A stretch of 64,000 nucleotides of DNA from a virus: the IMG/VR virus record IMGVR_UViG_3300036766_000686, positions 27,711 to 91,710 of that record; one strand, 5' to 3'. Below the pieces are notes generated by a model, which ran no database searches, was not told the origin of the DNA, and saw only the letters and a list, made by a program, of their open reading frames with translations. The stretch's first letter is position 1. Each line of letters begins with the position of its first letter. Below are positions 4,257-60,500 of the stretch, piece after piece. The position numbers were made by a program, and so were the translations under genes.

Positions 4257-7200
4257 CCTTTTCGTGCTTATCGAGTGACCACGCCCCTCCGTCTATCCCG
4301 TGTAAAATCGTCTTGATCAATGCTCCGTTTTTGATGCTAGGTTTCAACTCTCTCCACGAGGACGCGAAACACAAGACGCGCAAAAACTCGCCATTGCAAG
4401 CGAGCCCAAACCTGCCCATCGCACGCCCTTCTTTGTCAAAAAGTTCCGACACCCTCGCCACAACTCCTATCACCTTTGCCCTCTTGTCGCTCAGTCTTAC
4501 AACCCCCGCTCTCCCCAGTTTCTTATCCGCTCGATTATTCCACTCCCTCAAAGTCGCAGGGTGTTCGAGGAACAACTGCTCCGCATAGGACTTAATAGAC
4601 TTGTCGTCCATCAACTTTCGAATGTCCGCTAGATAGTTGATGTAAACATTATGCCACTCCGCAGACACGTCTCCGCAGACAAGCAACGGGACTCCATAAT
4701 CTATGACTGGGCGAAACTCCTCGTATAAGTTCCAATCGAGCTTCGCCCACAACGTCGTTCCGCTTGCGCCCTCCAGCAAGACCTTCAACCACTTTCGGTC
4801 CCACCCCTTGTGCTCTCTCTCCTTCTCAGTCCCGGGAATGTTTTCTGCCAACGTCGTGTCCCCGACAAGTCTTTCCTGAAAATCTTTCACAGCCCCAGCA
4901 AGGTAAACCGTTCCCGTCTCCGCAAACAACTCCTCCGATACATCGAATAAAGCTACCTTGACCTTTTCGTTGATGAATCCTTCAAGGTCCACGAGCGGGT
5001 GGGGCAACATGGCAATAGGATTTATTTCAGCGGCAACCGTCAAGCGTTCCCTCTCGGAATACTGAGGCGCGGAGTGAAGGCGCGCACCAAAAGCTTTAAC
5101 AAACTCCTCCTCTTTCCCTTTTGCCACGTAGGTCCAGAAGGCTTCGAAGTTCTCCACGACCCACTTGGGATTCACGAGCAGCGAATCCAGGGCTCCCGAC
5201 TTCGCCAACACGAGCACCGTTCTCTTTGTAACAGCCCTTCCCCTCCGTCGCAAAAAATCAACAAGGTCAGCGTAAGCGCCCCCCTTACCGCGCTCCTCAA
5301 CGATTGATTGCGCTCCAGCTTCTCCAACCCCTTTGATATGCAACAACGACCCGACAATGCACTCCCCATCTTTGTCGAGGGCAAAGCGGGCGCTGGACTT
5401 GTTGATATCGGGAAAGCGAACTGTGACTCCGTGCCTCTCCGCGTCCTTAGCGTATCGTCTAACCTGATCAAGGTCGGGTTCGTTCGCCAACAACGCCCAA
5501 TAGAACTCCAGCGCCCAATGACATTTCAAATACATGGTCCAATACGAGTGCAACGAATAGGAGACGGCATGGGAGTTATGAGAAACAAGCCCGTTAGCTA
5601 AGGTGAATAAATGATCTCCCCCAACTTCGATATCAACCACCGGTCGCACACCCGCGTCCTCCCAGCGTACAAGTCTCCGATAAGAGTAAGTCCGAAAGGC
5701 GGGTCCTTCAGTATTCGAAGCACAGGAAGTTCCCAAACTTTGCGCAAATTTCCGGATGTGGAAAAGCAGTCTATCGACAAACGAACCAAAGATTTTTTTT
5801 GTTTTATTTTGATCCAACGGTCTAAAGCATCGTCCCTCTCTGCTGTTATCTGAAAACGATCTTCTCCCCATAAAGGTTGGAAATGGTGAAGCCCATCTAC
5901 CTCGATTAAAAAAGGGCCAACGAAATCTACTTGCCGAACCATTGTTCCTATCCGTATTTGGACATTTCTCTTGAAGGTTGATTGATCCAACAAGCTCCAA
6001 ATTTTTTCTTCCATATGAGAAACCGTCTTCCGTCTTATTTCTCCCGTCGCCATTCGTGCCGACAGCCGTCTCCCTATCTCTTGAATTTTTTCCGGGTTTC
6101 TCGTCCGCCACTCTTTTAGGCGCCGCGACCGAGCTTCCAAAATGTCTTGTCGAGAAGAGGTTTTTTTCGCCGTTAGTCTCGCCCACTCGATTATCTTGGC
6201 CCTCTCGGCAGGATCGGCCCACCTCTTGCGACAGTTCTCCGCTCGAATATTCAACTTCACTTGTTGGCATACCGTACAGTGTTTTAAGTGCTCGGTCTTT
6301 TGCGACCTCACTTGAAAACTCTGGCCGCAAAGTGTCTTCCATCCTCCGAACTTTCGTTTCATCGACAAGCAATCCGGACACGTCCGCTGATGGTCGATAA
6401 CTTTTTTCATTCCTCGAAGTTCCTGCCCACACCTCGTCTTGTAGAACACACAAGCCTTCCTCAATAATTTCTCTGGTGCTGCATATCCCTCGTTCGGTTT
6501 GCCATCTGTGCCCGAGAGTGCATACCGTTGTTGAACCATCATCAAACTCCAACCTAACCGTTGGCCTGTATTCAATCGGCCAAATATGAATTACTTTTTG
6601 AGTTGTAGGTTTGCCGTTTAAGAACCCAAATATCTTGTCGCCAGCACGTAACTGCCCGATCTCCTTCTCTCCTTCAACCGTAGCGACTTTTTCGGATATG
6701 TCAATACACTTGTTGAAACCGTATCGTCCGAATTTCACAATGGCATCCCACAACTCGTTTCCCACATGCGCGCTCATATCGGGGGTTCGCTTCGCGCAAC
6801 CATCAAGAAACATCTTGCGAAAATCCTCGATTGCGGCGGCGCCTTCGGACTTGCCGATCTTCTTCCTCAATCTATCAGCTTCCTCAGCAGAGAACCCCGC
6901 TACGTCCGTTGCAATCTTGATCACCTGCTCTTGGAATATCAGCAGCCCGAAAGTTTCCTTCGTAATTGCTCCAACTTTGGGGTGGAATAGTTGCTCCTCT
7001 GTGCGCTCAGGCCTCTCTTGTCGAAGTTTGTACTCCGTAGCGAAATCTTTGGCGCCGGGGCGATTTACTGCGTTTAAGTTCACCACATCGTTAAAGCCCT
7101 TGAACGTAAGCCCCAAGGAACAACGGTGAGCGGACGAACTATCAAACTGAAATACTCCTACGAAATCGTGTCCCGTGAACGCTTCTAGCGTCTTGGGATC

Positions 7201-9126
7201 GTCAAGAGGAATACCGTATAACGCGAACGCGGGGGAGACTTGTTTGATGGCTTGCTCGGCTTCGCTCAGTACCGTCACCGTACGGGAGGATAAGACGTCT
7301 ATCTTAATGAGCCCCAACCCTTCAATGCCTTCCATGTCAAACGCCGTTACCACTCCCTTGTTACGGACCTCGATCGGACAGGTATTAACGATAGGCTCTG
7401 GCGCAACAACAACCCCCGCCGCATGAACGCCAAAGGATTTCGTAAGTCCCTCCAGCGCCACAGCGTGTGCAACCACAGAAGGATTTTCCGCGGCGAACTT
7501 CTTAAAAATGTCCTTGTCTTTTAGCGCCTTCTCGATTGCTCCTCGATCGTCTTGCGGCTCGATAGCGGAGGCGGCAATCGAGACGGACTGGTAAGGAACG
7601 TCAAAAACGCGCGCAACGTCTCGCAATACCGCCTTGCCGTTCATCCTGCCGAGGGTCCCGATCAACGCAACTTTTTCCTCTCCGTACTTCTCCTTCAAAT
7701 ATTCAACGATCTCTCCGCGCCTGTCCGCACTAAAATCAATGTCACAGTCAGGCATGTTGATACGCCCCGGGGAGATAAATCGTTCAAACATCAAGTCAAA
7801 TACGATCGGGTCAACGTCGGTTATCCCGAGTAAATACGAAATGAGGGACCCCGCCGCGCTTCCTCGTCCCGGACCTTTTGCTATCCCATGCTCCCGCGCC
7901 CACCTACATACGTCGTATAAGATCAAGAAGTAATCCACGAATCCGTATTTACCCAGCACCTTCAACTCCCGCGCCACTCGCGCGGTATAACTATCGAACT
8001 GAGCAGAGGGCAGCTTGTCGAGCCCGCGCGCCCTTATCCCCTCCCCCGCTAAGTTTATCAAATACTCAGCAGAGGATAAGAAGGGAGGAGGCAAGGATAC
8101 ATGAGGTAATCGAGCTTTCAAAGGATCAATAACTATTCGCGCGCTACACCTTTCGGCAAGTTCCACAGTATTGCGCAACGATTGTTCCACTAAGTGCTCA
8201 GGAATGTGATGGTGATACTCTGAAAACCCATGCCGCATTTCCTCAGCGGACTTGAGGAAATACTGTGTGCCATCGAATGTAAAGCGATCGTCCGTTGCCA
8301 TCGTCGCCTTCGTGCCTATCGCCAACATGACCTCGTGGTGCGCCGCGTCTTGCTCCCGCAAGTAATGAGCGTCTTGAGTTGCTAACAGTTTGCACTTCCC
8401 GCCCGTCAGTGCCAGACAATCCAACGCGAACTGATTTACCCGTTGTTGCCTTGCCTCGCGTAAATCGTGAGGCATGATTTCAAGGTAAAGGTTCTCCCCG
8501 AAGGTATCGTAAAGCATGGAAAACGCTAAGTCCAAATCTTGTGATCTTTTCTCAATCAACGCTCCATTGATCACCGATCCCGCGCACCCCGTTCCCACAG
8601 CAAGCCCTTTGCTCATAGAGCATAGGAACTGTAAATCTATTCTAGGTTTATAATAGAATCCTTCAAGCCACGCCTTGCTCGATAGTGCATACAAGTTCCT
8701 AAGCCCTTCGTCGTCCAGAGCCCACACCGTCAAGTGTTCAACGCGCCTGATGCCCTTCTCCTTTTCTATCTTCTTAATCTCCTCGCGTGTTCTCTTGCGC
8801 TTACCGGAGAAATCAGGATTTACAACGAATAGCTCCCCGCTCGTTTCTTCTTCGTATTTTTCAGCGTCCTCAAGTCCCCGCTGTTTCATGTCCTTGCCAA
8901 CGTAGAACTCGACGCCATAGACAGGCTTGACCCCATGCTTATTGCACTGAGCGGTCAACAGGTACGCCCCACGGATCGTTCCGTGATCAGTCAACGCAAT
9001 CGCGCCATCTCCTCGCTTCGCCGCAGCTTGAACATAGTCCTCGACACGGGCGCACCCGTCCAGCGCACTCATATCCGAATGAACGTGAAGGTGGACGAAC
9101 TCACCGCCCATAATAACCCTCCGCAA
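4240..9126 (-). CDS. dnaE: DNA polymerase III alpha subunit (family C), intein-containing
   Basis: PHP motifs HLHVHS/ALTDHG, GPGRGSAAGS, PDCDIDF, GVHAAG, GVFQF, YGFNK|intein|SHAVSY. Confidence 0.95.
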   Translation of the reverse strand: MRRVIMGGEFVHLHVHSDMSALDGCARVEDYVQAAAKRGDGAIALTDHGTIRGAYLLTAQCNKHGVKPVYGVEFYVGKDMKQRGLEDAEKYEEETSGELFVVNPDFSGKRKRTREEIKKIEKEKGIRRVEHLTVWALDDEGLRNLYALSSKAWLEGFYYKPRIDLQFLCSMSKGLAVGTGCAGSVINGALIEKRSQDLDLAFSMLYDTFGENLYLEIMPHDLREARQQRVNQFALDCLALTGGKCKLLATQDAHYLREQDAAHHEVMLAIGTKATMATDDRFTFDGTQYFLKSAEEMRHGFSEYHHHIPEHLVEQSLRNTVELAERCSARIVIDPLKARLPHVSLPPPFLSSAEYLINLAGEGIRARGLDKLPSAQFDSYTARVARELKVLGKYGFVDYFLILYDVCRWAREHGIAKGPGRGSAAGSLISYLLGITDVDPIVFDLMFERFISPGRINMPDCDIDFSADRRGEIVEYLKEKYGEEKVALIGTLGRMNGKAVLRDVARVFDVPYQSVSIAASAIEPQDDRGAIEKALKDKDIFKKFAAENPSVVAHAVALEGLTKSFGVHAAGVVVAPEPIVNTCPIEVRNKGVVTAFDMEGIEGLGLIKIDVLSSRTVTVLSEAEQAIKQVSPAFALYGIPLDDPKTLEAFTGHDFVGVFQFDSSSAHRCSLGLTFKGFNDVVNLNAVNRPGAKDFATEYKLRQERPERTEEQLFHPKVGAITKETFGLLIFQEQVIKIATDVAGFSAEEADRLRKKIGKSEGAAAIEDFRKMFLDGCAKRTPDMSAHVGNELWDAIVKFGRYGFNKCIDISEKVATVEGEKEIGQLRAGDKIFGFLNGKPTTQKVIHIWPIEYRPTVRLEFDDGSTTVCTLGHRWQTERGICSTREIIEEGLCVLQDEVWAGTSRNEKSYRPSADVSGLLVDETKVRRMEDTLRPEFSSEVAKDRALKTLYGMPTSEVEYSSGELSQEVGRSCREGQDNRVGETNGEKNLFSTRHFGSSVAAPKRVADEKPGKNSRDRETAVGTNGDGRNKTEDGFSYGRKNLELVGSINLQEKCPNTDRNNGSASRFRWPFFNRGRWASPFPTFMGRRSFSDNSREGRCFRPLDQNKTKKIFGSFVDRLLFHIRKFAQSLGTSCASNTEGPAFRTYSYRRLVRWEDAGVRPVVDIEVGGDHLFTLANGLVSHNSHAVSYSLHSYWTMYLKCHWALEFYWALLANEPDLDQVRRYAKDAERHGVTVRFPDINKSSARFALDKDGECIVGSLLHIKGVGEAGAQSIVEERGKGGAYADLVDFLRRRGRAVTKRTVLVLAKSGALDSLLVNPKWVVENFEAFWTYVAKGKEEEFVKAFGARLHSAPQYSERERLTVAAEINPIAMLPHPLVDLEGFINEKVKVALFDVSEELFAETGTVYLAGAVKDFQERLVGDTTLAENIPGTEKEREHKGWDRKWLKVLLEGASGTTLWAKLDWNLYEEFRPVIDYGVPLLVCGDVSAEWHNVYINYLADIRKLMDDKSIKSYAEQLFLEHPATLREWNNRADKKLGRAGVVRLSDKRAKVIGVVARVSELFDKEGRAMGRFGLACNGEFLRVLCFASSWRELKPSIKNGALIKTILHGIDGGAWSLDKHEKVEAYE
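5575..6708 (-). mobile_element. Intein in DnaE (378 aa), no in-frame endonuclease
   Basis: Starts CIDISEKVAT after GFNK; block B CTLGHRW; ends VVDIEVGGDHLFTLANGLVSHN followed by Ser+1; removal restores GFNK-SHA. Confidence 0.92.
5598..6410 (-). CDS. Vsr/DUF559-like PD-(D/E)XK endonuclease nested in the +1 frame of the DnaE intein
   Basis: Track ORF 5598..6575; likely start ATG 6410 (AGGA 10 nt upstream). CPDC/CTVC zinc motifs, basic helical region, SHMEEKIW..FKRNVQI..VDFV..LIEVDGLHHF..RDDALD. Confidence 0.8.
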   Translation of the reverse strand: MKKVIDHQRTCPDCLSMKRKFGGWKTLCGQSFQVRSQKTEHLKHCTVCQQVKLNIRAENCRKRWADPAERAKIIEWARLTAKKTSSRQDILEARSRRLKEWRTRNPEKIQEIGRRLSARMATGEIRRKTVSHMEEKIWSLLDQSTFKRNVQIRIGTMVRQVDFVGPFLIEVDGLHHFQPLWGEDRFQITAERDDALDRWIKIKQKKSLVRLSIDCFSTSGNLRKVWELPVLRILKDPPFGLTLIGDLYAGRTRVCDRWLISKLGEIIYSP

Positions 9127-14198: not shown

Positions 14199-14203
14199 CA
14201 TCC

Positions 14204-27221: not shown

Positions 27222-28366
27222 GCGAGAATCTTCCTTGCTGTAAAATCACAAGTGTACCCGCTATCCCTGTCGAACTTGTGAGCCACACGAGAGAAATAAT
27301 AGTCCCCAGTTAAAGACATACTCGGCAAGGTGAGAGAGTGGGTTTGCCTTGCGCGTAAGTCCTCGATTCCGATCACCGACCCACGCCCCATCACAAAATT
27401 TTCCCGCTTGCGCTTGAACCATTCCTGCGCCCACACCTTCATGTCCACGGCGCTCGAAAACTTTTTATCCGTGATAACGTCCACAGCGTAATCCCCAAAC
27501 ATCAACCTTACCACCGCCCCTGCCGTCGTGTGTGTTTCGTCAACGACTTTGGAAGGGTCGCCTTGGTACTTGACGTCTGGAGCGTTCGCTAGATCGTCGA
27601 ACTCCTCCACGTAAAGTTCATCGGTTAGAGGGTTGCGGGACTGGACTTGCAACCGAGTGACCGCGCCGGTTAGCGCAAGCTCGGGCCGGAACTCTAACAA
27701 CGAACACGATCCCACCGCGTGTTCGAAAGTATATTTTTTGTCCTGTATCATCCCGCTTCGGTTGTCGGGATTTACAAAGTATAGACACCATCCAAGCACC
27801 TCGTTGTAATCGACCCAGAATAAATACCCCACCAAGTTCGCCAACCCTTTTACGAATTCGAAATCGGACATGTCCGACTTTTGAGGAGAGGTATTGCGGT
27901 TGGGCGTTGGGTCCACAAACGCCTTGAAGTTATAAGGAGCGCAAGCCGCAATCCGTTCAATGGCTTGGTCGATCTGGAATACCTCGAACTGAGTTATTGA
28001 TTCCTCTTGAGGACGAGCGTCCTTCGGCTTGTTTTGGGTCATTAGAATATCCTTTGTATACCCCTTGATGGTGATTGTCGGCATCCCATCTTGGACAAAG
28101 GATAGTTCGGGTTTGCAGATTATTACCCGCCCGATAAAAGACAACTGTGTGCCGTAACCGCACCAAATATCTAGTTCGTTTCCCGGCTGCCATAGCGGGG
28201 AATCGCATAGGATATAATCTGGGTTGGCAAGCGTCACGCGAGCCTCGTCCACTACCCCGTCCGCACTCTCGTACTCGACGGACTGAACCAAGTCGGAAAT
28301 CCCCGTTCCGAGTTTGTTGCCCGCAACTGCTACTTCGAAATTCGGGGCGAGGTCATCGTTGCTCAT
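27218..28366 (-). CDS. Baseplate hub (late control D-like)
   Basis: GNELDIWCGY, SDFEFVKGLA, GDYYFSRVAHKF..GYTCDF. Confidence 0.85.
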   Translation of the reverse strand: MSNDDLAPNFEVAVAGNKLGTGISDLVQSVEYESADGVVDEARVTLANPDYILCDSPLWQPGNELDIWCGYGTQLSFIGRVIICKPELSFVQDGMPTITIKGYTKDILMTQNKPKDARPQEESITQFEVFQIDQAIERIAACAPYNFKAFVDPTPNRNTSPQKSDMSDFEFVKGLANLVGYLFWVDYNEVLGWCLYFVNPDNRSGMIQDKKYTFEHAVGSCSLLEFRPELALTGAVTRLQVQSRNPLTDELYVEEFDDLANAPDVKYQGDPSKVVDETHTTAGAVVRLMFGDYAVDVITDKKFSSAVDMKVWAQEWFKRKRENFVMGRGSVIGIEDLRARQTHSLTLPSMSLTGDYYFSRVAHKFDRDSGYTCDFTARKILA

Positions 28367-46530: not shown

Positions 46531-49500
46531 TTAGCTGGCGATCGTTGCCACTCCTCCAATTGAGAAGCCTGTTAACTTTCCAGCCTTGACGTCACTCCAA
46601 ACCTTATCACTGGTAACATGGACTGTCATTATCCACGAACCTTTTTTGACCTTCTCGTTTCCCAACGCAAACTCAGCGGGGGCAACATAGGACTCCACAA
46701 GCTCGATTCCCAGATCGCCAAAGGCGCGGTGCATCAATCCTAATTGTGTGCCGTTTTGCCCCACCGGTTTATTATAATTCATTAAGAATTTGTGGGCGGC
46801 GCGTTCGATGGTCTCGGGCTCCTCGTAATCGTGTTGGGCATCAATGACATTCGGCTCCAGTACCACCCCAGTGACTAACCTCTTTTCTTGCCCGTCCGCT
46901 CCCTTCCGCAACTCGACACGATAGACAGGAACAAAAATTTCGAAATCATAACGTTTCTCCGCGCTTTGCACTTCGGGAGCCTCCTGAGACGGAGCCCACA
47001 ACCATTGGTTACTTTGCGCGTTGCGCGTCAAAGTATAAACGCCTTTAAGCTTCTTCCCGTGGAATCGCGCTTTGATGAATGTATCGGATTGGGAAAGTAT
47101 TTCCGCGCGTCCCCTGTCCACCGCGTCAACGAAAGAAGGCGTTTCTTTGGTCGGATTTAGATAGTGCCCCGGCTTGACCACGCCCTCTATGCCCATCGAA
47201 TCCCTATGTCCGTCATGGGAAACCATCGTTGAAATTTGCTCGTTGCTCAAAGGGTCTTGAGGCATTTCGAATACCAGCAGATCGCCTACGCCCAAGTCCA
47301 CCCTGATAAACCAACGCCTGCGCGAAGGACCGAGGCGTATCTGGATTGGCCCCCGCCAAGTTTGATCTTGCAATACGAACTCCGCGTCCAGCAAGGATTT
47401 CTGCGCCCGCTTGTAAGGAGCCTCGAAATCGAGCTTGACCTCGCCCTTCGCAATCGCGTCCACGAGTGCGTCACGCATTGCCAACGCTTCCTGCCCCCGC
47501 TTGTCCCAGTATTGAAAACCTTTAGGCACTTGAACGCGAACGGCTTTAGGAAGCGCCGAGTACCCGTCCGGGGGCATCCATTTTTTGTCCACCGCTTCTT
47601 TTCCCAACACGTAAGGGGTCGGGTCGTCGGGGTAGATTGCGAGCCACGCCGCTTCATCCCCCATACCTTGATCCTCGGACGGAGGCAAAACCACGTCGGC
47701 CTTTTTCAGCAACTCTTTGGCGCAATCTAAACAGAGTAAAGCCTTGTCACCTTCCGCCCACCCTATCGCTACCGTCGCTTCGGACTCGGGGTGGGTCTCA
47801 CAACACTCGCCTTTGTTCGCAGAGTTGAAGGCAAGCTCTCGGAAAAACATACGATAGTTAAGCGCTTTGCCGTGGAAGAAATACTCATGGAACCAAGACT
47901 TTTGCGCTCCATATTCTACCGTTCCTTGATCAAGAATCAAAAATACCCCGGGGTACTGTCGAGTGCCCCCGACAGGCGGGGGTTGGCCGGGCTGAGGGTC
48001 TTTCGTCTTCCCCTCGACGTCGATCCATGCGTAAGGTTCCGGGGCCTTACGTTCGCTTTGAATTTCAGCCCGTACCAATTTATCCGTGCCTCCTTTAGGT
48101 CGCGTCGCCCACTCGCCCGTCTTCCAGTTGATCTTTTGCTTTCCATCCTCAGCAATCCATCGCCTTGCGTCCGCAAGCGACAGAATAGGGCGATCAGGAT
48201 TGCCGGGAATCTGTGTGTTAAGTGTCCATCCGGCCAGCAAGTCCTTGGGGCGCATTTCGATCCTAAGGTCATTATGAACACTCGCGCCTCGAAAATGGTT
48301 TTGCACCACATAGCGATAAGCGCCGTCCTCGGGCGGAACCTCTAGGTACGGGTCTTGTTGCTTCGCCAAGCCCTTAGCAAGGTCGGGGTAGGAATGTTCA
48401 AGCTCCATAGCCACATCGTCCGATTCCCAACGTTGCTCAAAAGCCTCCTTGACCTTTCGTTTGTCTCGCTCAGATAGCGCTTCCCATAGCGTCTTAACCT
48501 TCTTGCGCCCTTCCGACCCTAAAAATGCCGCTACTGCGCCTGACCATTCATTGGGCGGGCCAGCTTCGACCAGAAGTTCCGCGACGGTACGAGACTTACG
48601 AACGCCTTGCCCCGTGGGGCGATACGATACGTTGCCCTTTACGTCCACGTCCTTTTCTTGCAACACAAGGTCGCGCCGAGCTTGTGTCACCACCTCGTCC
48701 ACAGTGTTCGCGCCCCCATGCCCTTCCGATAGAACGCGAGGGACCCACGCTGAAATGTCAATGCCTTGAGGTGAACGCGTGAGGTTAATCGTCTCGCCCT
48801 CTATTCTCAACAGATCTCCCATTTCCAAGTCGAGGGACGTGGTAAACGTGTCGCCCATCGGCACCACGTCTTGCTCTTTTACTTGAACTATCGTTGCAGG
48901 CTTCTCGCGCCCCGGAAGCACCCCGTATTGATAGGCCCACGCGCCTCCCGCTGTTTTTTTCTTGCCGAGAATAACCGCAGTAAATACCGTGGCGTTGTGG
49001 TACTTGATCTGATAGTCAGGGTGGGTAAGGGCGAGCAAGTACGGCGCGTCCACTTGTTTGCATACAACGCCCTCCGAGCCCGGGAGCGTTCGATACTCGC
49101 GGACAACACGTTCGAGGTCGCGCGTATTGTCTACAACAACGAACGGGGCGACGTTGAGGCAATAACGTAAATCAGGCGCTCCTTTGGTCCCTTGCTTGAC
49201 TCCGAGTTTCGACAGTAAGCCAAGGCGATAGGCCGCTTCCTTGACGTGAATGTCACCCTCCTTGCCGTACCACAGGACATCGTAGATATTGCACACGAGG
49301 TTGGAATCGTCTGGAGCGCCCGTTGAGTGAATGTACCCGCTGGCGACCTCGCGGGGCATGTGTTGCGATCCCTCCCACGCCTCGATCTCCATCGGTACAA
49401 CGAGCGGGTCAACAGGAAGAGCCAGCAACTCCTTCACAACGTTGGGAAGCCGATCGGTATTATCTGTTCCGTCCTCGGAGAAAATACGCACCTTCCCATC

Positions 49501-51738
49501 CCACTTGTGCGCTTGATGGTTGGAGTTGGAAACAAGTATCTCCCCAACAAAATAGTTGTGGTTGCCTTCGACCTCTATATCAAAGCGCCCTTTAGAACGA
49601 GAAAATGAAACTCGCCTCGACCATTTGACCTTACGAGGGATTATTCCTTCGTAAGGTTCTTCGGCATGTCTCCACCCTTGACCAATGACATTAAGTCCGG
49701 TTCCGCCTAACTTATACGCCATATCTTCGCAAAACCAAGGGGCGCATTTTTGCAGAATAAGTTTTGTACCCTTACTACTAAACGCCAAATATTCGTAACC
49801 GCGAGATAGATAGATTTTAACTTCAAATCCGAAACTACAAAAATAGTTTTTGATTAGCTTATTCTCTTTCGAAGAAAACCCTTCTGTATGAAGTAACAAC
49901 CTTGGAGACTTATTCCAAGCAATAGACCCGTCGTCCATAATCCAAGCAGCCCAAGAAACCGGGGACAATTTATACAGAAAATCTTTGGTGATCGTTTTTT
50001 TGAGTGCCCCGTCCGGATGTAGTTCTTCCCAGATTTCCAGTAATCCAACGTCGGAGCGCGAGTCCCACCTTACTCCGGGGTGCCCAAACTGAGATATCCT
50101 CGGCTTAATCTCGCCTCCTAAAACGCCAAGCAATCTCGATTTCCATTCCAAATACGCCTGTTGCTTTATCGAGTGAGAAATAGAGACATACGGAGACTGA
50201 GATTCTTTTTGACGAGGTAAAGACGTATCCCCCATTAAAGAACCACGCAAAAAATCCTCCCTTTCCTTTCCAAGAACACTTCCGCGAACACAAACAAGAT
50301 CGTTGGCTTTAATGTCGGATGCGTTTTGTTTTGTGCCTGATGCGGTGTAAATACCGTGATTGCCCGTACAGGTAAGCATCCGCCTTCTTCCGTTTTCGCC
50401 AGAGCATCCAAATGAGGTGTACTCATGGCACGAACCGTTAGTAAACCAATTTGTTACCGGCTTCCACTCAACTCTCTTTGTTTCCCAGTTATACGATTTA
50501 ACTTTTACTTTCAACCGAGCATTTACAATCTCCCCTATCGGCAACGAACCTCTGTTCGTTTCGATCTTTGTTCGATACGGAAAACACCCGTCATACTTTT
50601 TTTGAACTAAAGTCGGTAACCACTCGTCCTCGTTCTCCTCGAATAGCGTTATGAAGTTTTCGACGGTCTGAGGCTGATCGGGGTATTCGGGACGGTAGGG
50701 TTTCATCATTGGGAAAAACTTGCCCAGCGTGATCCCCTCGACCTTTCCTACGCTGAAATAACGAGACGCGAACGCCCCGTCCTCCTCGTCCAATTTTGCA
50801 ATCGCCATCTGTGTCAAGAATTCGTACCCCTTGCGGGAGTTCGCTTTGTAATACTCCCACAAGGATTGCAGGTACTTTTCCATCTCTCGAAAATTGAAGC
50901 GACGCCGATCCACTTCATTATCAAGATCAAGCTTCCATTGCTTCGCCAACTTTGAGACGGCTTCAGGAGCCTCACGACCACGCCCCACCGCGTACCCCGA
51001 GCAACGCGGAGGCATTCCTTCTGCTTTCGGCTCGCGGCTCAACATCACGCGCCCGTACCCGCCCGCGATAAAAATGGACGCGGCGTCGAAGGACTTGATC
51101 ACATCGAAATAGGGTAGAAACTTGCGCAGTCTCGAACCTACGCCTAAAAGGTGAATGTCGTTTAGAGGAGGAACCTTGGCCAACTTGTACCGCTCACTCA
51201 CGCGGTTCGCAATCGCGGTCCACTGCGCGGGGGTCATAAATTGAATCGTGTACCCCGCGGGCATTTTCTTTTCCAAATGCCAATCGCCCATCGGGGTTTT
51301 CTCCCCCGCGAGAAACCCCGCCCAACACAAGCGCCCCCCGTCCTTGTACCAAGACTGAGCGTGGGTATGTACCTTGAACCACATATGGTCAACGACGATC
51401 GGAGACAGACCTGATTCCTTCATCTTGAGGTAGTGGTTGACCGTGACCTTCGTCTCCAGAGGGTCGTCGAGGACGATATATTCATCAAACAATTCCTTAT
51501 GCTCGTTGAGCCATCGCACGTACCCGTCCAATGTCACCGAGCCCGGGTGGGCGATATTCGAGTGGGCGCCTGAATCGAGAATAAACTTGACCCCGTTCTT
51601 AACGCCTTTCTCGATTCCCTCCAGATACCCCGCGCCTCTGCGCGCGTAGGCGTAGGAAACGAGGATGTGCTTTGCACCTTCTTCCATCAAGAAGTGGATT
51701 CGGTCAGGGTTGTTGGCGACGTAATAACAGTTAAACAT
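46531..51738 (-). CDS. Polyprotein: TGT/DpdA-like + ATP-dependent ligase (intein) + LigD 3'-phosphoesterase-like domain(s) + XkdF-type prohead protease
   Basis: ILDSGAHS/LDD/IHLLG/SFDAAS; QKKYDG, YDVL, SEGVVCK, QIKYH; VVQNHFRG..HNDLRIE; VTGVVLEP..DAQHD..AAHKF..GSW..LTGFSIGG. Confidence 0.82.
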   Translation of the reverse strand: MFNCYYVANNPDRIHFLMEEGAKHILVSYAYARRGAGYLEGIEKGVKNGVKFILDSGAHSNIAHPGSVTLDGYVRWLNEHKELFDEYIVLDDPLETKVTVNHYLKMKESGLSPIVVDHMWFKVHTHAQSWYKDGGRLCWAGFLAGEKTPMGDWHLEKKMPAGYTIQFMTPAQWTAIANRVSERYKLAKVPPLNDIHLLGVGSRLRKFLPYFDVIKSFDAASIFIAGGYGRVMLSREPKAEGMPPRCSGYAVGRGREAPEAVSKLAKQWKLDLDNEVDRRRFNFREMEKYLQSLWEYYKANSRKGYEFLTQMAIAKLDEEDGAFASRYFSVGKVEGITLGKFFPMMKPYRPEYPDQPQTVENFITLFEENEDEWLPTLVQKKYDGCFPYRTKIETNRGSLPIGEIVNARLKVKVKSYNWETKRVEWKPVTNWFTNGSCHEYTSFGCSGENGRRRMLTCTGNHGIYTASGTKQNASDIKANDLVCVRGSVLGKEREDFLRGSLMGDTSLPRQKESQSPYVSISHSIKQQAYLEWKSRLLGVLGGEIKPRISQFGHPGVRWDSRSDVGLLEIWEELHPDGALKKTITKDFLYKLSPVSWAAWIMDDGSIAWNKSPRLLLHTEGFSSKENKLIKNYFCSFGFEVKIYLSRGYEYLAFSSKGTKLILQKCAPWFCEDMAYKLGGTGLNVIGQGWRHAEEPYEGIIPRKVKWSRRVSFSRSKGRFDIEVEGNHNYFVGEILVSNSNHQAHKWDGKVRIFSEDGTDNTDRLPNVVKELLALPVDPLVVPMEIEAWEGSQHMPREVASGYIHSTGAPDDSNLVCNIYDVLWYGKEGDIHVKEAAYRLGLLSKLGVKQGTKGAPDLRYCLNVAPFVVVDNTRDLERVVREYRTLPGSEGVVCKQVDAPYLLALTHPDYQIKYHNATVFTAVILGKKKTAGGAWAYQYGVLPGREKPATIVQVKEQDVVPMGDTFTTSLDLEMGDLLRIEGETINLTRSPQGIDISAWVPRVLSEGHGGANTVDEVVTQARRDLVLQEKDVDVKGNVSYRPTGQGVRKSRTVAELLVEAGPPNEWSGAVAAFLGSEGRKKVKTLWEALSERDKRKVKEAFEQRWESDDVAMELEHSYPDLAKGLAKQQDPYLEVPPEDGAYRYVVQNHFRGASVHNDLRIEMRPKDLLAGWTLNTQIPGNPDRPILSLADARRWIAEDGKQKINWKTGEWATRPKGGTDKLVRAEIQSERKAPEPYAWIDVEGKTKDPQPGQPPPVGGTRQYPGVFLILDQGTVEYGAQKSWFHEYFFHGKALNYRMFFRELAFNSANKGECCETHPESEATVAIGWAEGDKALLCLDCAKELLKKADVVLPPSEDQGMGDEAAWLAIYPDDPTPYVLGKEAVDKKWMPPDGYSALPKAVRVQVPKGFQYWDKRGQEALAMRDALVDAIAKGEVKLDFEAPYKRAQKSLLDAEFVLQDQTWRGPIQIRLGPSRRRWFIRVDLGVGDLLVFEMPQDPLSNEQISTMVSHDGHRDSMGIEGVVKPGHYLNPTKETPSFVDAVDRGRAEILSQSDTFIKARFHGKKLKGVYTLTRNAQSNQWLWAPSQEAPEVQSAEKRYDFEIFVPVYRVELRKGADGQEKRLVTGVVLEPNVIDAQHDYEEPETIERAAHKFLMNYNKPVGQNGTQLGLMHRAFGDLGIELVESYVAPAEFALGNEKVKKGSWIMTVHVTSDKVWSDVKAGKLTGFSIGGVATIAS
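49525..50586 (-). mobile_element. Intein in ligase motif I (354 aa) with in-frame LAGLIDADG endonuclease
   Basis: KYDG|CFPYRTKI; CTGNH; GSLMGD and WIMDDG; ends FDIEVEGNHNYFVGEILVSN|S. Confidence 0.92.
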
Positions 51739-52846
51739 TTTGTAACTCCATGCACCACCGAACTATCTCGGCAAGGCTCTTTTCATATTTCAACGCGTGT
51801 CCTCTCACGGAGAACGGGAACGCGATGGCGTCCTCTATCAATCGCACTTGTTCCTCCAAGTCATGCGCCTCAAACATACAACGCCTTTCTCCATCCAAAA
51901 GCTGAGGGTGGGAAAAACCAAAGGGAACAATTGGTATTGTATCCAATGCCATCGCTTCCAGCACACAATAACCAAAGTTTTCCTCGATCGTATTGCTGAC
52001 CATGACCTTCGCTCGTGAAAGAAGGCAAAGGTACTCGCGCTTCGAAATGCCTTCCCGTATCTCGATTACCCCCCGCCTTTGAAGTTCCAACGCTCTCTCT
52101 CTCAGTTCCCCCGCCCCCCACTGCCTCCTACTTGTCGTGACAAGGAAACGCCAATCAGGGTGCCGAAGTTTCAAGGACTCGAAAACTGTTAGCGACACCC
52201 CGGGGCGTTTCTCGAAATCAGGACGATTGGTTAATATTATTAGGTTCTCCTTCGCTCCATTCTGCGCTCCTACAAGCTCCCCAAGCTCCCCGAGCTTGTA
52301 TGGGTTGCCGGAAACGACGATCTTGGAATCTGGGACGCCCCTGCGCTCCGCAAGCTGCCCCTTGTGATACTCAGAGCCAACGAATAGCAGGTCAAACACC
52401 GCTCCCCACCCTCGCTCATAGTGTCGAGCGAACGGAGCACACTTTTCCATGAAGTCCTCACGCGTATAGGAACCGGCGTGAACGAACCCCGCCATCTTGA
52501 CGTCCACTCCGTTCAACGTCGCCAAGTACCTGATCGATTCAATGCCCCAGAACTCCACGTCCGCAACAAAAAACAAGTCCTTGTTTTTGATCGTTCCTTC
52601 GTGAAACAACCTCGCAACTTTCCTCAACTGTGTTGCCTTGTAGTGGAGCGTGGAGTTGACGTCGAGGAACGTTCCTACTTGAATCTCGTTGCTAAGCGCC
52701 TCTCCGTCAATCGTCCTGCACTCGGCTCTCTGTCGAGCAAACTCCTCGGGGAACCAGCGGTACCACTGCTCCGTGTATCGTTCGTCAAGAGGTTCAATAG
52801 GTAGGTACCAGATCACCTTCCACCTCGCTTGCAAACCCAAATCCAA
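51731..52846 (-). CDS. GT-B (GT4-like) glycosyltransferase
   Basis: NRPDFEK, EENFGYCVLEAM. Confidence 0.85.
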   Translation of the reverse strand: MDLGLQARWKVIWYLPIEPLDERYTEQWYRWFPEEFARQRAECRTIDGEALSNEIQVGTFLDVNSTLHYKATQLRKVARLFHEGTIKNKDLFFVADVEFWGIESIRYLATLNGVDVKMAGFVHAGSYTREDFMEKCAPFARHYERGWGAVFDLLFVGSEYHKGQLAERRGVPDSKIVVSGNPYKLGELGELVGAQNGAKENLIILTNRPDFEKRPGVSLTVFESLKLRHPDWRFLVTTSRRQWGAGELRERALELQRRGVIEIREGISKREYLCLLSRAKVMVSNTIEENFGYCVLEAMALDTIPIVPFGFSHPQLLDGERRCMFEAHDLEEQVRLIEDAIAFPFSVRGHALKYEKSLAEIVRWCMELQNV

Positions 52847-54073: not shown

Positions 54074-54075
54074 AA

Positions 54076-54684: not shown

Positions 54685-54702
54685 CTCCTTGCCTCCTTCA
54701 GT

Positions 54703-55350
54703 TCATTTAATTTTCCAAACCTTGTGTTGTTGCACCGATAGACGAAGCCTCGGGTTATCTTTTACTTTTTCTATGCACCACGCCAGCGCTGCCTCGTCAA
54801 TCTCATTGCCTCGCGTTGCTGGAGAAACGTAAACGAGGGCGGCGGGGGAAATTGGCAACATAGGCTCAAGGACTTTTTGTCCCGTGGTGATTACGAACCT
54901 GACCTCGTCTGCCCTCTTGATCACTTCGTCCCTCAGCGGGTGACGAGTGGGGAACTTGGGAGAGACCGAAACCCAATCTAGTTCGGCGGGAGGAAGTTTG
55001 ACTGTGCCGTTCGTCTCGATTGCGATATACTCGAAATACTCTCTAAGCGTCTCCAGCAATTTGCCATCGACTTGCAACGTAGGTTCGCCCCCCGTCAACA
55101 ACAGGGCGCGATTATCGTACCCTCCCGACACACGAATCCCATCCGTAATGATTTCAGAGGCGGTAAGGCTGTCGCATTTACTGTGGTCGGTATCGCAATC
55201 GAAGCCCCCGGGCGATAGCGGGCCGGGTTGCATACGGCAACGAAGGTTACACCCCGCAAAGCGAACGAATACAAAAGGTCGCCCCGCGTTCGCTCCCTCG
55301 CCCTGCAAGGAATAGAATATTTCGGATATGCCGTAGCGCTTCGCCTTCAC
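54703..55350 (-). CDS. queE: 7-carboxy-7-deazaguanine synthase (radical SAM)
   Basis: EIFYSLQGEG, FVRFAGCNLRC, CDT, LTGGEP, IETNG, VSPK, LSVQQHK; GTG start overlaps queD stop. Confidence 0.92.
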   Translation of the reverse strand: MKAKRYGISEIFYSLQGEGANAGRPFVFVRFAGCNLRCRMQPGPLSPGGFDCDTDHSKCDSLTASEIITDGIRVSGGYDNRALLLTGGEPTLQVDGKLLETLREYFEYIAIETNGTVKLPPAELDWVSVSPKFPTRHPLRDEVIKRADEVRFVITTGQKVLEPMLPISPAALVYVSPATRGNEIDEAALAWCIEKVKDNPRLRLSVQQHKVWKIK

Positions 55351-55793
55351 CCCGTCACCTCCGCTTTGCTGTCCTCTGTTTCCCACACCGTTACTTTCGA
55401 TACGCTGATCCACGGCATGTCCGCAAACAACTTCCGAGACACGTCAAGCAATAACGCTGCCATCTCCTCTGCGGTTGGGTTCGACAACATTGGGTACTCC
55501 TTAGTGTCCAGAGGCACGTTCCCCGAAATCGTGGGCAACGTGAGCCCCAACGGCGAGTCCTCTTGGTGGCGTAGATACGCATGGTCCCAAAACGAATCGA
55601 GCCACGCGCCTATTCGCGCTTTGATCTGGGAGAAATCAACAACCATTCCCGTTGTCTCATTCACGCCCCCGTCTATTCTACGCAACGAGACCTCAATCTT
55701 GTATTCGTGCCCGTGAACGTTAAAGCATTTTCCTTCATGAAATCTCAGCCTGTGCGCCGCACTTATTCGAAATATCTTGGTAACGGTTATCAT
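55347..55793 (-). CDS. queD: 6-carboxy-tetrahydropterin synthase
   Basis: AAHRL..KCFNVHGH, VVDF, DH, NPTAE, VWET. Confidence 0.92.
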   Translation of the reverse strand: MITVTKIFRISAAHRLRFHEGKCFNVHGHEYKIEVSLRRIDGGVNETTGMVVDFSQIKARIGAWLDSFWDHAYLRHQEDSPLGLTLPTISGNVPLDTKEYPMLSNPTAEEMAALLLDVSRKLFADMPWISVSKVTVWETEDSKAEVTG

Positions 55794-55819
55794 CCTTTCT
55801 CCTCCTGTTTTTACTTGCC

Positions 55820-57268
55820 TTAGTCGTCCTCAAAGGATTTTTGCATCGCCAAAAAGTACCCTTCTTCGCGTTCGTCCAACGGTTCATCCTCCGCGGACTT
55901 CTCAATCGCAAGACGCATTTCCTTGACCTCGTTGTTTGTCGAACGTTCCAAAACTAGATCGAATAACTCCATGTGGTTCGTGAACGGCCCGCGCTTTCGG
56001 TCATAGTGAATGGACAAGCGCTTCGCCACGTCTCCCGATAACGCTCGTCCCAAACGAAACGCCAACACTTCCTTGAGCCAATCGGGAACGTTCGTCTCCT
56101 CGTCGTTGACAAGGATATCAATGTCACCTTCCGTCTCTCCGTGATTGGCCAACCCCCCAACCAACATCACGTAAGGCGTCCTAACCTTGAACGTCTTGAA
56201 GTTGTCCACCACGTCGTTGATCTTGATCAAGGGACCAAGCTTGTTCCCGGAGTGACGGATATCCATGTACTCGCCCTTTTCCGTTGCCTTCGCTTCAAAG
56301 TCTGCGGACATTTCGTCCAGCCCCGTATCGGGCGGAGGCGGGTGTTTTTCGCCTCTCGCTCTCAACTCGTCCACGACCCTCGCGTGCATATTCACCACGT
56401 CCTCGACGCTCCAGCCGTCCCGCTCTTCCAAATACATGCGGTGCAGTTCATCGTGGGCTTGGCAAAGCCAATCGAGTGACTGCGCGGTAGGGTCGGAATC
56501 GACGTCGAAAACAAATTGGGATTTATACATCGTAGCGGGTACGTTTGCCTCGTTTGCCGTTTCCATAAAAAACCTCCTCACGCTTGTTTTCATCCCCTTC
56601 GGATCGAAGCTCACCACACCTGGCCCCCGTTTCACAAGTTCTTTTAATACCACCACCAACAAGCGCTTGATAGTTGCTAGATCGTAACGGAACCCGCTCG
56701 GGTTTTTGCGCCATGTTGAGTACCACGCCAGCAGTATGCGCATATCGTCCCGCAACTGCGCGTCCGTCATTTCGGCGGGGTTATAGGAGTTTACATCATG
56801 TATCTTGGACAGCCCCTCCACCTGAACGTCTCGCACCGTTACCTGAGGTCCGCTTCCCACGTTCGTCCTCAAGGGGCTATCGAACTTGTCCAGCACTTTA
56901 ACGTTCCAGCAATACAGCGTTCCTTGTTTCCAAGAAGGCTGAGCCTCTGCCCATTGCGCTCTAAGCTCAGAGGTTATTAAGTGTTGCGGCTCAGTTGCGG
57001 CAAACTCCTCATTGCCCATTTCCTTCATCGGGCCAAGATGCACCACGCCAAGCGCCTGACGTTGACTAACAAGAATAAAGTCCTTGTTTGAAATCTCAAA
57101 AGGCTTGGTCTTAACGATCAACGTTTTCCTGCCGTCGATAACCGCGCGAGCCATAAACGAAGGCGACAAGATCAATCCATCGTGAACGTTCAAAGCGGAA
57201 CTCCCGATGGTTGCAGGAGACAGTTTCCCGCCCGTTGCCAACGCGTCACTTGTGATCGCCTTATTCAT
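55820..57268 (-). CDS. Multidomain protein: capsid-like N-terminal peptide + ASCH-like domain + helical domains + Pol-beta-type minimal nucleotidyltransferase
   Basis: AVIDGRKTLIVK..ALGVVHL..LYCW (ASCH); VMLVGGLANHGETEGDIDILV (hGG..DxD). Confidence 0.7.
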   Translation of the reverse strand: MNKAITSDALATGGKLSPATIGSSALNVHDGLILSPSFMARAVIDGRKTLIVKTKPFEISNKDFILVSQRQALGVVHLGPMKEMGNEEFAATEPQHLITSELRAQWAEAQPSWKQGTLYCWNVKVLDKFDSPLRTNVGSGPQVTVRDVQVEGLSKIHDVNSYNPAEMTDAQLRDDMRILLAWYSTWRKNPSGFRYDLATIKRLLVVVLKELVKRGPGVVSFDPKGMKTSVRRFFMETANEANVPATMYKSQFVFDVDSDPTAQSLDWLCQAHDELHRMYLEERDGWSVEDVVNMHARVVDELRARGEKHPPPPDTGLDEMSADFEAKATEKGEYMDIRHSGNKLGPLIKINDVVDNFKTFKVRTPYVMLVGGLANHGETEGDIDILVNDEETNVPDWLKEVLAFRLGRALSGDVAKRLSIHYDRKRGPFTNHMELFDLVLERSTNNEVKEMRLAIEKSAEDEPLDEREEGYFLAMQKSFEDD

Positions 57269-57530
57269 TGATCGGTTCCTCCGTTGTTGAAGTCTTGCCG
57301 TGTTGCTCCATAAAAGCGTCTTGTTGCGTCTCCAATTTTAGGTCCAACTCCTCGAATCTGTTGGCATCAAATAGCAAGCTAAGGCACTTAACGTATTGGG
57401 TATCCGTCATATCGCCTCGTTCCTTCAACACCTCTGCCGATAGTTCAAGTATACGCTCCACCGTCCACGACGGGTCGCGGGTGGATTCCTCAAGGCGATA
57501 CGCCGCCGTACCTTTTTTGGGATCGCTCAT
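57261..57530 (-). CDS. Hypothetical acidic protein
   Basis: ATGA overlap with MuF stop. Confidence 0.6.
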   Translation of the reverse strand: MSDPKKGTAAYRLEESTRDPSWTVERILELSAEVLKERGDMTDTQYVKCLSLLFDANRFEELDLKLETQQDAFMEQHGKTSTTEEPINE

Positions 57531-60500
57531 AGCACCCTCAATTTCGACAGTGCGTCCTGTAACGCTACCTTTTGCTCCCTCGTAAGCTCAGCATTTCCCG
57601 GCAACAACTCGATAAACATTCTAGGCGCATTGTAGTGGGACGCGATGGTTGAGGCAGCGCTGGTACTCATCAGGTGGGAGGCTCGCTCGATTTCGGTCCA
57701 CGCTCGTTCCTTGGCCCACCCCGTCGCCTTCGTGACCGAATTAACTAGATCGTCGATTACCTGACCGTAGGAACGTGACATTGTAAAAATAGATTCCCCG
57801 GCAGGGAACTTGTGCCCAGTAATATCGACAAGAATTTTCCGAGCCGTGATCTCCGTGGATGCCTCACACAACGCCTTTCCTTCGAAATTGTAAGCGCTGG
57901 AAAGGAGACGATTGGAACCGTGGACGGACTCGTGAATGAAGGTAAAAAAGCCCCCATCCCTCATTGTCCCGTTACTTGTTGCTCCTATGCTCGCGGACAT
58001 ATCATCAAAGCGCTTGCCCCTGAGCGTGATCCCCTCGAACCCGTCTCGCCATCCGTTATATTTTCGCGTCCGAGCGTTCCTCTCTATCAAGTCCCTCCGC
58101 GCACCTCCAGTGCGGCTAGGCTCTAAAGACAAACCCCACTGTTTCTCAAAAAAGTCCTCCGTGTTTCGACGAAACTGCGGGAAATCAAACTTGCTAATTT
58201 TTTTCTTCTTATTGCTCGCAAGCGTTTGGTCCCACAGCGTCTTAAACTTCTTGACCTCTTGTTGCAAAACTTCAGGAGCAGCAGGAGTAGGCAAAAGGGG
58301 AATCGGACGCGGAGGAATATAGTTCGACAAGGGTGCGGCGGGGATTACAGCAACAGGCGCCTCAACAGGGACGGCGGCGGGTGCTTCAATAGGTAAAGCC
58401 ACAGGAGGTTCGATTGGGATGGAAACGGGGGGAGCGATCGGGGGTGCTGGAGGGGGGGCAACCGGAGGACGAGGGGCGACAACTGGAGTGCCGGGGATCC
58501 TCGATACCACATCAATGCTACAACGACAGTTATGTACCGCAAATAGTTGTTCACCAACTAAGAAACTCTCATCCTCTTCGACGGTAAGATTCCAGACCAC
58601 TCTATGACTGGAAAATCTTTGAATAAACCCAATAGGAACAAACCCAATTTCTGAAAATGAGAAGGGGTCACATAGATTAAGTGTTCTGGAAATAGCTCTT
58701 GTATAAGATGATCCCTCGGTTTGAACCATCCTTTGACCTCTATCCAAATTTTCCGTCTCGGCAAAAAGAAATCCGGAAGGTATGTTAAGTCCGGGGTCAA
58801 ATAGAAACGTTGGCACTCGTAAAGAAAAGGTTCCTGCAAGGTTAATAATTCTTTGGCTAACTTGTCTTCCCAAGTGCTTCGCAATCTTAACGTACCTTGC
58901 CAAGGTGTCTCCAACGTAGACCAACGCCCGTGCCCAGGCTTTTTGCCAAACATGGGATTTTTTGCACCGGAAAATTGTCCCTTCCTCGCCCCACCTCTGG
59001 GACCACAACCCAATCTCTTCCATCGTTTCGTTCGACAGCCCAGCGAACACGTAAAAATATTTTCTGAATGACACGGAGTCCGCCAAAACTTTTTTCCACA
59101 TTCGGAACAAGCAACGTATTCCCCTTTTATATGGGATATTCTCTTGCACTCGCTGGAACAATAGTGAAACCGATCCTTCTGAAAAGAAGGAATCAAAACT
59201 ATTTTCCCACATTGAGCGCAACGCGCTTGAACCTTCGCGGAGGCAGGCCCCCTCATGGAGCCAGCGCGCGCCCGATTCGCCAACATATATTCGCGAGAAC
59301 AAGACTTCTTCGTTCCGATTCGCGACGGCATTACCATAATGATCTTGCCGCAATTCGCGCAATGGGATGTTACACGGGTTAACTTTTCCAACGAGATCGT
59401 CCTCGATGACTGCACTAAAGATATTACACCCGTCACGGCGAATCAAATAAGGATGGTCCGCTGTCGAAATTATCCCCTCGATGTTTATGAAATCCCCAAG
59501 AAAATCCCTGGACATCACGTTAGAAACTTTTTTCCAACGCAACTTGTGAGTTAAAACCTCGTCTCCAACGCGGATGCTACTTATAGGAATCAAACCTCGA
59601 CGGGACAAGACAGGGGTAGACCCGATAAAACAGTTTAGGTGGAAGGGGGGCAACGCGTTCCCATTCTCTTCCAACTTGCTTGTCAAAGAAGGACCCATCG
59701 GTCCTCGCGCTCCCCCGACAAGCGACAGCGTATCGGATATTGATAGGAAGGGTTGTATTGTCCGTATGCTGGTAGGGTTTTTCGCGCCCAGTATTCGGTT
59801 CGCCAAAGCGCTTCCATCTGCGACCTTGAACCGCTTCCCGTCCAATATCTCGCACCTATCACAGGTCCGTTGGTCTTTCGGATTGACGATTCGATACTCC
59901 GTATACCCTGCGCGCCGCATGACGTTCACACTCGAAATCGCCCGAGACGTCGTTGCGGCGTTGCTCACAAGCCCTTCGAAGTATCGAGCTTGTGTCCCGT
60001 TAAATCCCTTCGGTACGGTGACTTGTGATAGCGTTCGCCCCACCAAGCGCTCCAGCGCCCGCCCCGCCACTTCGTTTGACCTACCTTGCTCCATCACAAA
60101 CTTTTTCGTGGTGGAGGCGATAGCGTTGCCCACGTTTGCCGAGTAATGCTCTCCGATCCAATAAGTTTGATGCTTACCCAAGACGTTCATCGCCGCCTTG
60201 TCTTGCAACCCAAAACCCACACGCAAATTAGGAGGGGGCTCGGCTTTCGTGACCGTCCCCGTGTCCCACTCGCCTATCGGGTACTCAATGGGAGCCTTCA
60301 TCTTGCCCGATATGCGAGCCTGCATTACCTCGAAGGACAGTTTGTAGATCGCCCGCATATCCCTAGTAAATCGTTCCTCGACGATTCCCGCCCACTGTTC
60401 CATCGTCTTTCCTATGCCATTGGAAATCGTCTCCGCGTCCTTATCCGTAAGATCGCCCTTCATCGCCATGAAGCGTTCCCGCGCTTCCCTCGCTGCCTTT

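Follow-up and report, generated by a model that had tools for sequence, protein, structure and literature searches.

How can a homing endonuclease be housed within an intein whose own reading frame does not encode it? This question is raised by two loci in IMG/VR virus record IMGVR_UViG_3300036766_000686, of which positions 27,711 to 91,710 were analyzed here (64,000 nt; hereafter the window). It makes up the final 64 kb of a phage genome that is present as a single contig of 91.7 kb. Among its genes, nearly all of which are on the minus strand, are those for sheath, tape measure, portal and terminase, along with other phage genes. At one locus the gene for DNA polymerase III alpha (DnaE) is interrupted by an intein, and at the other a MuF-like head-morphogenesis gene is interrupted in the same way. 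Inside each intein a nuclease gene was observed in the +1 frame; DnaE, MuF, both inteins and both nested genes are all located on the minus strand. As judged from the sequence, both loci are very probably contiguous inteins of the class 1 type that carry their homing endonuclease as a separate +1 gene over the linker, with a host frame that is free of stops and a nuclease start that is internal to the host gene.

The host genes, the inteins and the splicing regions are positioned as follows.

4240-9126, minus strand: DnaE (DNA polymerase III alpha), host of intein 1; 1628 aa, with the Pfam domains PHP, DNA_pol3_alpha, DNA_pol3_finger and HHH_6.
5575-6708, minus strand: DnaE intein; 378 host-frame codons, DnaE residues 807-1184, inserted between K and S of the conserved GFNK/SH (the slash marks the junction here and below).
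6451-6708, minus strand: predicted N-terminal splicing region of intein 1, with Cys1 and TLGH; host-frame conservation is 0.3-0.5 and drops beyond this region.
5575-5682, minus strand: predicted C-terminal splicing region of intein 1, with blocks F/G and ...VSHN; delimited from the conservation profile.
57527-60658, minus strand: MuF-like head-morphogenesis (minor capsid) gene, host of intein 2; 1043 aa.
58529-59632, minus strand: MuF intein; 368 codons, residues 343-710, located in PPFHLN/CRC.
59429-59632, minus strand: predicted N-terminal splicing region of intein 2, with Cys1 and STADH; conserved relative to L029.
58529-58606, minus strand: predicted C-terminal splicing region of intein 2, with ...VEEDESFLVG...AVHN; conserved relative to L029 and L107.

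Both inteins exhibit the motif set of class 1 inteins, which comprises an N-terminal Cys or Ser, a block B TxxH and a C-terminal HN followed by Cys, Ser or Thr. In the DnaE intein these elements are Cys1, TLGH and ...VSHN/S, and its ends are homologous at both sides to those of the DnaE intein in relative L008 (E=4e-27). In the MuF intein they are Cys1, STADH and ...AVHN/C, and the same insertion site with homologous ends is present in L029 and L107. The GFNK/SH site of DnaE is also occupied in L008, L009, L012-16 and L021. At both loci, removal of the intein leaves a continuous extein and restores the conserved host motif, and the host frame is unbroken, unlike that of a fractured gene or a naturally split intein. 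The Pfam matches at the MuF locus are weak: Phage_Mu_F scores 20.3 bits on the host gene, under the cutoff of 29.6, and Hint_2 scores 19.9 bits (E=0.001) on residues 343-386 of the gene product, at the N-terminal end of the intein, under the cutoff of 28.4. No similarity was detected between the DnaE and MuF inteins, nor between the two nucleases that they contain. The boundaries of the two inteins and their intact splicing ends had been proposed earlier by a model that read the letters of the window (hereafter the original prediction), and they were matched exactly.

Within the DnaE intein, the +1 frame is open from 5598 to 6575 (325 codons) and ends 23 nt before the C-terminal junction; within the MuF intein, it is open from 58558 to 59436 (292 codons) and ends 29 nt before the junction. 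The next longest same-strand nested open reading frames (ORFs) in the 91.7-kb genome have only 211 and 176 codons. Expected stop counts were obtained by shuffling the synonymous codons of the nested ORFs. Across these ORFs the host frame contains no stop, compared with 15.0 expected for DnaE and 14.1 for MuF, and none of 5000 shuffles was open, which argues that the intein frame is kept open. The third frame contains 26 and 20 stops, compared with 22.6 and 18.8 expected. The same result was obtained across 16 nested loci (the two in the window and 14 relatives), with 0 host-frame stops compared with 8-19 expected and a third frame as expected. In 10 of 11 free-standing or fractured relatives, the equivalent frame carries 27-67 stops; the remaining one, the GC-rich free-standing L028, carries 3. 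This low count points to GC-rich phages as those in which invasion without fracture would be easiest. Shuffled nested nuclease genes give just 8-19 host-frame stops, compared with 25-69 for free-standing relatives, and the overall amino-acid and codon make-up of the nested nuclease genes seems adapted to the overlap.

The avoidance of stops can be described at the level of single codons. A stop in the host frame requires a nuclease codon that ends in T, followed by a codon that begins with AA, AG or GA. At the wobble position before AA, AG or GA codons, T was used in 0 of 271 cases (T/(T+C)), compared with 43-81% in other contexts. The change from T to C at this position is synonymous, so that host-frame stops can be removed at no cost to the nuclease, and this free removal may explain the +1 register in both unrelated nuclease families. 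Additional selection for a hydrophilic linker was considered and is not claimed: the hydropathy of the linker lies below that of the shuffles (z mostly -1.4 to -4), but the size of the shift is that given by the Gln and Arg codons that replace the would-be stops. No Pfam family was matched in the host-frame interior of the inteins. The original prediction had described an interior without stops or features, overlaid by a complete +1 endonuclease that ends within about 30 nt of the splice junction, and had suggested a test for depletion of NNT-(AA/AG/GA)N codon pairs in the nuclease frame; the counts given above agree with both.

Selection was compared between frames over the same aligned nucleotides. 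In 133 locus pairs, the nuclease frame retains 39% amino-acid identity, compared with 22.5% for the host frame and 22.4% for the third frame, which is non-coding. Along the DnaE intein, host-frame conservation is high from 6741 to 6472, collapses from 6471 to 5752 and is restored from 5706 to 5575, and nuclease-frame conservation rises over approximately 6200-5660. About 5598-5706 is constrained in both the host and the nuclease frames, and the positional profile puts this stretch at about 5706-5620. These profiles indicate that the interior of the intein frame is subject to stop avoidance only and that the +1 nuclease frame is under selection.

The layout recurs in relatives. For nuclease 1, IMG/VR viral contigs were scanned with a seven-sequence alignment, which yielded 19 loci; a single-sequence scan of the viral contigs retrieved nothing, and a 61-sequence alignment was too diverse for the design of a scan pattern. 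The nuclease is nested in 16 of the 19 loci (13 distinct), within an open host frame of 757-1787 codons, and the register is identical in all 16, the nuclease frame being shifted one base downstream relative to that of the host. The hosts are DnaE, with the insertion at GFNK/S, and at least two other proteins. In the relatives, Pfam Intein_splicing matches bracket an insert of about 300 codons, and those in L017 and L022 are above the PF14890 cutoff. The exceptions are L025 and L026, which are distant, free-standing genes, and L019, in which DnaE is fractured. In L019:1-2844, an ORF with the N-extein and N-intein extends to 860, the nuclease with its own ATG occupies 854-1726, and the frame of the C-intein and C-extein starts from 1552 and overlaps the 3´ end of the nuclease. 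Among approximately 65 viral or metagenomic relatives of nuclease 2 that were checked, only L029, which is the same contig as L108, and L107 are not free-standing. In these two, nuclease 2 is nested at +1 in an intein of a MuF-like gene at the site PPxHxx/C...HN/CR. The original prediction had expected purifying selection on the +1 frame beside mere stop avoidance in the host frame, which agrees with the 39% identity and with a host frame no better conserved than the third, and it had named as fatal to itself homologues with every nuclease in frame or a +1 ORF that is neither conserved nor translated. Homologues nested at +1 were found for both nucleases, and the +1 frame is conserved.

Two loci differ in detail from the common arrangement. 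In the DnaE intein of L023 (3007-3861), the nested nuclease directly follows block A, ahead of most of the N-terminal Hint strands, and it forms the longest branch in the nuclease tree; in the other loci it follows block B. The DnaE gene of L008 (3-4328) carries a second, upstream intein, which ends in ...GGILVSN/S near residue 541 and gives a partial Pfam Intein_splicing match.

The nested gene in the DnaE intein comprises the following elements.

5598-6449, minus strand: nested +1 gene 1, encoding a predicted zinc-finger and Vsr-like (EDxHD-type) nuclease; 283 aa from GTG 6449.
6455-6462, minus strand: Shine-Dalgarno (SD)-like GAGGAAGG, 5 nt before GTG 6449.
6261-6431, minus strand: two predicted C/H zinc-finger units of nuclease 1, Ros/MucR-like in relatives; located by alignment.
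5697-6029, minus strand: predicted Vsr/DUF559-like catalytic domain of nuclease 1, with E189, D217, E225, D227, H231 and D248.

The family of nuclease 1 contains 135 cluster representatives (E<=1e-3; library of 1.84 billion proteins), mostly 270-330 aa in length. In a 61-sequence alignment, E189, D217, E225, D227, G228, H231, F232 and D248 are invariant, and all are kept in the window copy; the tail of the protein is also conserved among homologues. Pfam matches among these 61 members are the Ros/MucR zinc finger PF05443 (9/61) and DUF559 (7/61). An AlphaFold (AF2) model built from this alignment has a mean pLDDT (AlphaFold's per-residue confidence score) of 86.8 and is confident from approximately residue 41, with values <50 before. 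The C-terminal domain of the model superimposes on Vsr 1cw0 (Z 9.8, 133 aligned residues, root-mean-square deviation (rmsd) 5.0; Foldseek probability 0.99), and this domain also matches the homing endonuclease I-Bth0305I 3r3p (Z 7.8, 93/98 residues, rmsd 3.5) and the DUF559 protein 3hrl (Z 6.9). Based on these matches, on the predicted fold and on the E..D..H..D motif, nuclease 1 is assigned to the Vsr-like/EDxHD-type homing nucleases, a group that goes back to Dassa et al. 2009. Direct searches were less informative. A Pfam search of both nested nuclease proteins returned nothing significant, phmmer of nuclease 1 against PDB sequences returned only noise, and a profile search gave a weak DUF559 match (E=0.024). 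Neither tblastn of nuclease 1 nor blastn of the DnaE intein matched any of 50,697 GenBank phage records.

The nested gene in the MuF intein comprises the following elements.

58558-59391, minus strand: nested +1 gene 2, encoding a T7 endonuclease I-like nuclease (277 aa from TTG 59391) with three predicted CxxC zinc ribbons and a NUMOD3-like motif.
59400-59404, minus strand: SD-like GAGGA, 8 nt before TTG 59391.
58672-58887, minus strand: predicted T7 endonuclease I-like catalytic domain of nuclease 2, with RSTWE, PDF and EVK.
58927-58971, minus strand: NUMOD3-like motif SGAKNPMFGKKPGHG of nuclease 2, invariant in family alignments; relative P0007 carries PF07460.

The closest relative of nuclease 2 is P0002, with 49% identity over 272 residues. 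Nuclease 2 matches phrog_9019 'Holliday junction resolvase' (8e-15) and aligns to T7 endonuclease I (PDB 1m0d, E=0.002); its E, D, E and K stand opposite the catalytic E20, D55, E65 and K67 of T7. PF05367 (T7 endonuclease I) was not matched by nuclease 2 at E<=0.1; its relatives carry PF05367. These alignments indicate that nuclease 2 is a distant relative of T7 endonuclease I, with membership at the superfamily level. The two nucleases, one Vsr/EDxHD-like and the other T7 endonuclease I-like, belong to different families, as the original prediction had held, although both have predicted restriction-endonuclease-like folds.

The start sites bear on how the nucleases would be expressed. Both window loci and 13 of the 14 nested relatives carry an SD and a start codon directly ahead of the first zinc finger; in the relatives the start is ATG, GTG or TTG, and a GGAG-type motif is located 5-11 nt upstream of it. 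The exception is L008, which has just weak SD and start candidates, further upstream. The N-termini called for the homologues P0010 and P0002 agree with the proposed starts, and the break in AF2 confidence agrees with the start at GTG 6449. In an alternative explanation, ribosomes would leave the host frame by programmed +1 frameshifting and yield a fusion of N-extein, N-terminal Hint region and nuclease; this is consistent with the +1 ORFs being open for 42 and 15 codons ahead of the proposed starts and with the same register in all relatives. This explanation is very unlikely. The SD and start codon right before the first zinc finger are conserved, so that a +1 frameshift is not needed; the nuclease frame shows no conservation ahead of GTG 6449, where the model has pLDDT <50; and the nuclease of the fractured L019 has a stand-alone start, in addition to the equivalent starts of P0010 and P0002. 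No slippery site was noticed, although no search aimed at one was made. On the simplest reading, translation would start internally, either on the mRNA of the host gene or on a transcript that begins within this gene. Of the two routes of separate nuclease expression offered by the original prediction, internal initiation is favored by the conserved SD and start, including GAGGAAGG with GTG 6449 and GAGGA with TTG 59391, and the +1 frameshift is dispensable. An SD-like sequence before a plausible start had been noted at both loci in that prediction. No SD-sequestering hairpin at the two nuclease starts of the window beats shuffles (z -0.55 and +0.80). Hairpins that pair the SD with an upstream CUCU or CUCC were observed in L009:2917-3002 (z=-3.7), L012:2944-3029 and L020:2941-3026, and these resemble the translation-attenuating hairpins of Dassa 2009.

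An assembly or sequencing artefact, in which two compensating indels mask a canonical intein with an in-frame nuclease, is extremely improbable. An unselected host frame should carry about 15 stops, yet none is present at the two window loci or at 14 independently assembled nested loci, all in one register, and wobble T is absent from every position at which it would create such a stop. It is also unlikely that the inteins are fixed, vertically inherited relics in which the nucleases no longer home and the +1 ORFs are heading to decay. Decayed versions do exist: L194-L198 are DnaE inteins at the same site in which the nuclease core is deleted and only the zinc-finger start and the ORF tail are left in an open host frame, and they look like decayed mini-intein stages. 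In L194, L195 and L197 the loss of the core is located around 2400-2900. Both window ORFs, however, are full length and keep every family-invariant or catalytic residue; purifying selection acts on the nuclease frame across relatives at 31-45% identity; and the same intein-nuclease unit is found in different host genes, which implies movement. Several points nevertheless weigh against contiguous inteins with separate +1 nucleases. The SD motifs are short; Pfam scores no Intein domain on the window DnaE intein, the identity of which comes from its motifs and its homology to L008; and the single-sequence AlphaFold model of nuclease 2 has a pLDDT of 32, leaving its fold to be assigned from sequence matches only.

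On the preferred reading of contiguous inteins with an independent +1 nuclease, ribosomes that translate DnaE or MuF would read through a linker of approximately 250 meaningless codons; the two halves of the Hint fold would come together, and the intein would splice in cis. Other ribosomes would start at the internal SD and GTG or TTG directly after block B and produce the free nuclease. The nuclease would cut intein-less alleles, at GFNK/SH in DnaE and at PPxHxN/CRC in MuF, and repair would copy the whole element.

The phage contains at least four inteins in 91.7 kb, located in DnaE, MuF, the ligase and the terminase. In the last two, LAGLIDADG domains were detected in frame, as the original prediction had indicated for their endonucleases. 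The terminase large subunit (window 62393-64000, minus strand), which is cut by the window end, contains an in-frame LAGLIDADG_3 domain. A stop-free frame of 1743 codons (window 46534-51762, minus strand) contains an ATP-dependent DNA ligase domain, which carries a LAGLIDADG_2 intein in frame (residues 404-746). This frame also ends in an XkdF-like prohead protease domain (residues 1625-1740), so that it represents an unusual fusion or, alternatively, two genes that no stop separates.

Several published systems share parts of this layout. A homing endonuclease in another frame or on the opposite strand of an intein was proposed by Gorbalenya 1998. Actinophage inteins with antisense LAGLIDADG and Vsr-like homing endonucleases and with a 'frame 3' endonuclease VII-like homing endonuclease have been described (Gosselin, Arsenault & Gogarten, bioRxiv 10.1101/2025.01.02.630785), and invasion by a free-standing homing endonuclease gene was proposed as their origin. 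The endonuclease there, as in the window, has its own ORF, which is flanked by the splicing blocks of a contiguous intein, and the hosts include DNA polymerase III alpha and a minor capsid protein (MuF-type). In those inteins the sense-strand endonuclease is endonuclease VII-like and the Vsr-like one is antisense, whereas the Vsr-like and T7 endonuclease I-like endonucleases of the window, as of its relatives in uncultured phages, lie on the sense strand at +1. The cyanobacterial dnaX intein, of which Gorbalenya 1998 gave the first hint, contains an out-of-frame LAGLIDADG homing endonuclease with a frame-specific ratio of nonsynonymous to synonymous substitutions (Phillips, DeSimone & Gogarten, bioRxiv 10.64898/2026.09.14.751524). 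It resembles the window inteins in the same-strand overlap, an unconstrained intein frame (described there as disordered), purifying selection on the endonuclease frame and the coexistence of mini-intein alleles. It differs in the LAGLIDADG family, the cellular host and the name '+2 ORF', and in that system no single genome has two unrelated examples.

Fractured genes, in which a split intein has a free-standing Vsr-like or GIY-YIG homing endonuclease gene between its halves, were reported by Dassa et al. 2009 (PMC2677866). They share with nuclease 1 a Vsr-like architecture, in which a protein of some 300 aa carries its catalytic domain at the C-terminus, as well as hosts that comprise phage DnaE and other replication genes. 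They also share with the window an endonuclease gene whose 3´ end overlaps the coding region of the C-intein, and the SD hairpin is common to them and some relatives. The DnaE arrangement of L019 is a fractured gene of this type. Unlike in these genes, the host frame in the window is unbroken, and a single precursor would be made and would have to splice in cis; the contiguous out-of-frame state is absent from the Dassa 2009 model. ShiLan-type insertions in phage methylases hide out-of-frame HNH genes (Arsenault et al. 2025, PMC11855218). As in the window, the nuclease gene occupies another frame of an insertion that is kept stop-free in the host frame; these insertions are without splicing domains, in contrast to the complete splicing blocks of both window inteins. 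The claim of the original prediction that the arrangement was an undescribed and distinct class therefore does not hold, since the layout appears in Gorbalenya 1998, Gosselin 2025 and Phillips 2026. The general architecture is already published, and the nuclease families and their register are new here. A sense-strand +1 Vsr-like endonuclease in contiguous inteins, a T7 endonuclease I-like endonuclease in an intein, the wobble rule and the apparent step from the nested state to a fractured DnaE were not found described.

This last point rests on the maximum-likelihood tree of the nuclease, which was rooted at the midpoint for drawing only. L019 is located inside a clade (support 97/95) with nine other members, all of them contiguous and nested, and the successive sister lineages are nested too. 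By parsimony, the fractured DnaE of L019 appears to be derived from the dual-coded nested state, although this is a single case. A broader proposal is tentative and is regarded as possible rather than probable: that contiguous inteins with +1 dual coding persist for long times as a state in their own right and are the precursors of at least some fractured genes and naturally split inteins, and that the +1 register recurs because a T-to-C wobble change removes every host stop. Under this proposal, a split intein with the homing endonuclease gene between its halves would result from one nonsense mutation in the linker frame, which is unconstrained.

Out-of-frame homing endonucleases of inteins are thus not confined to actinophages and the cyanobacterial dnaX, and two unrelated cases are present in one uncultured phage. 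To the known layout are added sense-strand nucleases of the Vsr/EDxHD-like and T7 endonuclease I-like types, and each of these families keeps the same +1 overlap across deep divergence. The loci provide a natural dual-coding case of approximately 750 nt in which one frame would be selected purely for the absence of stops, with a simple explanation at the codon level. Gene callers and intein surveys that consider in-frame sequence only will mislabel such inteins as mini-inteins or as 'endonuclease-less'. The relatives also tie contiguous inteins to fractured genes, which are the source of the widely used split inteins gp41-1, NrdJ-1 and IMPDH-1. If the contiguous +1 intein is indeed a long-lived precursor, a missing state would be added to the Dassa 2009 model and one of its arrows would be reversed, and a simple rule would be available for where overprinted homing genes can persist.

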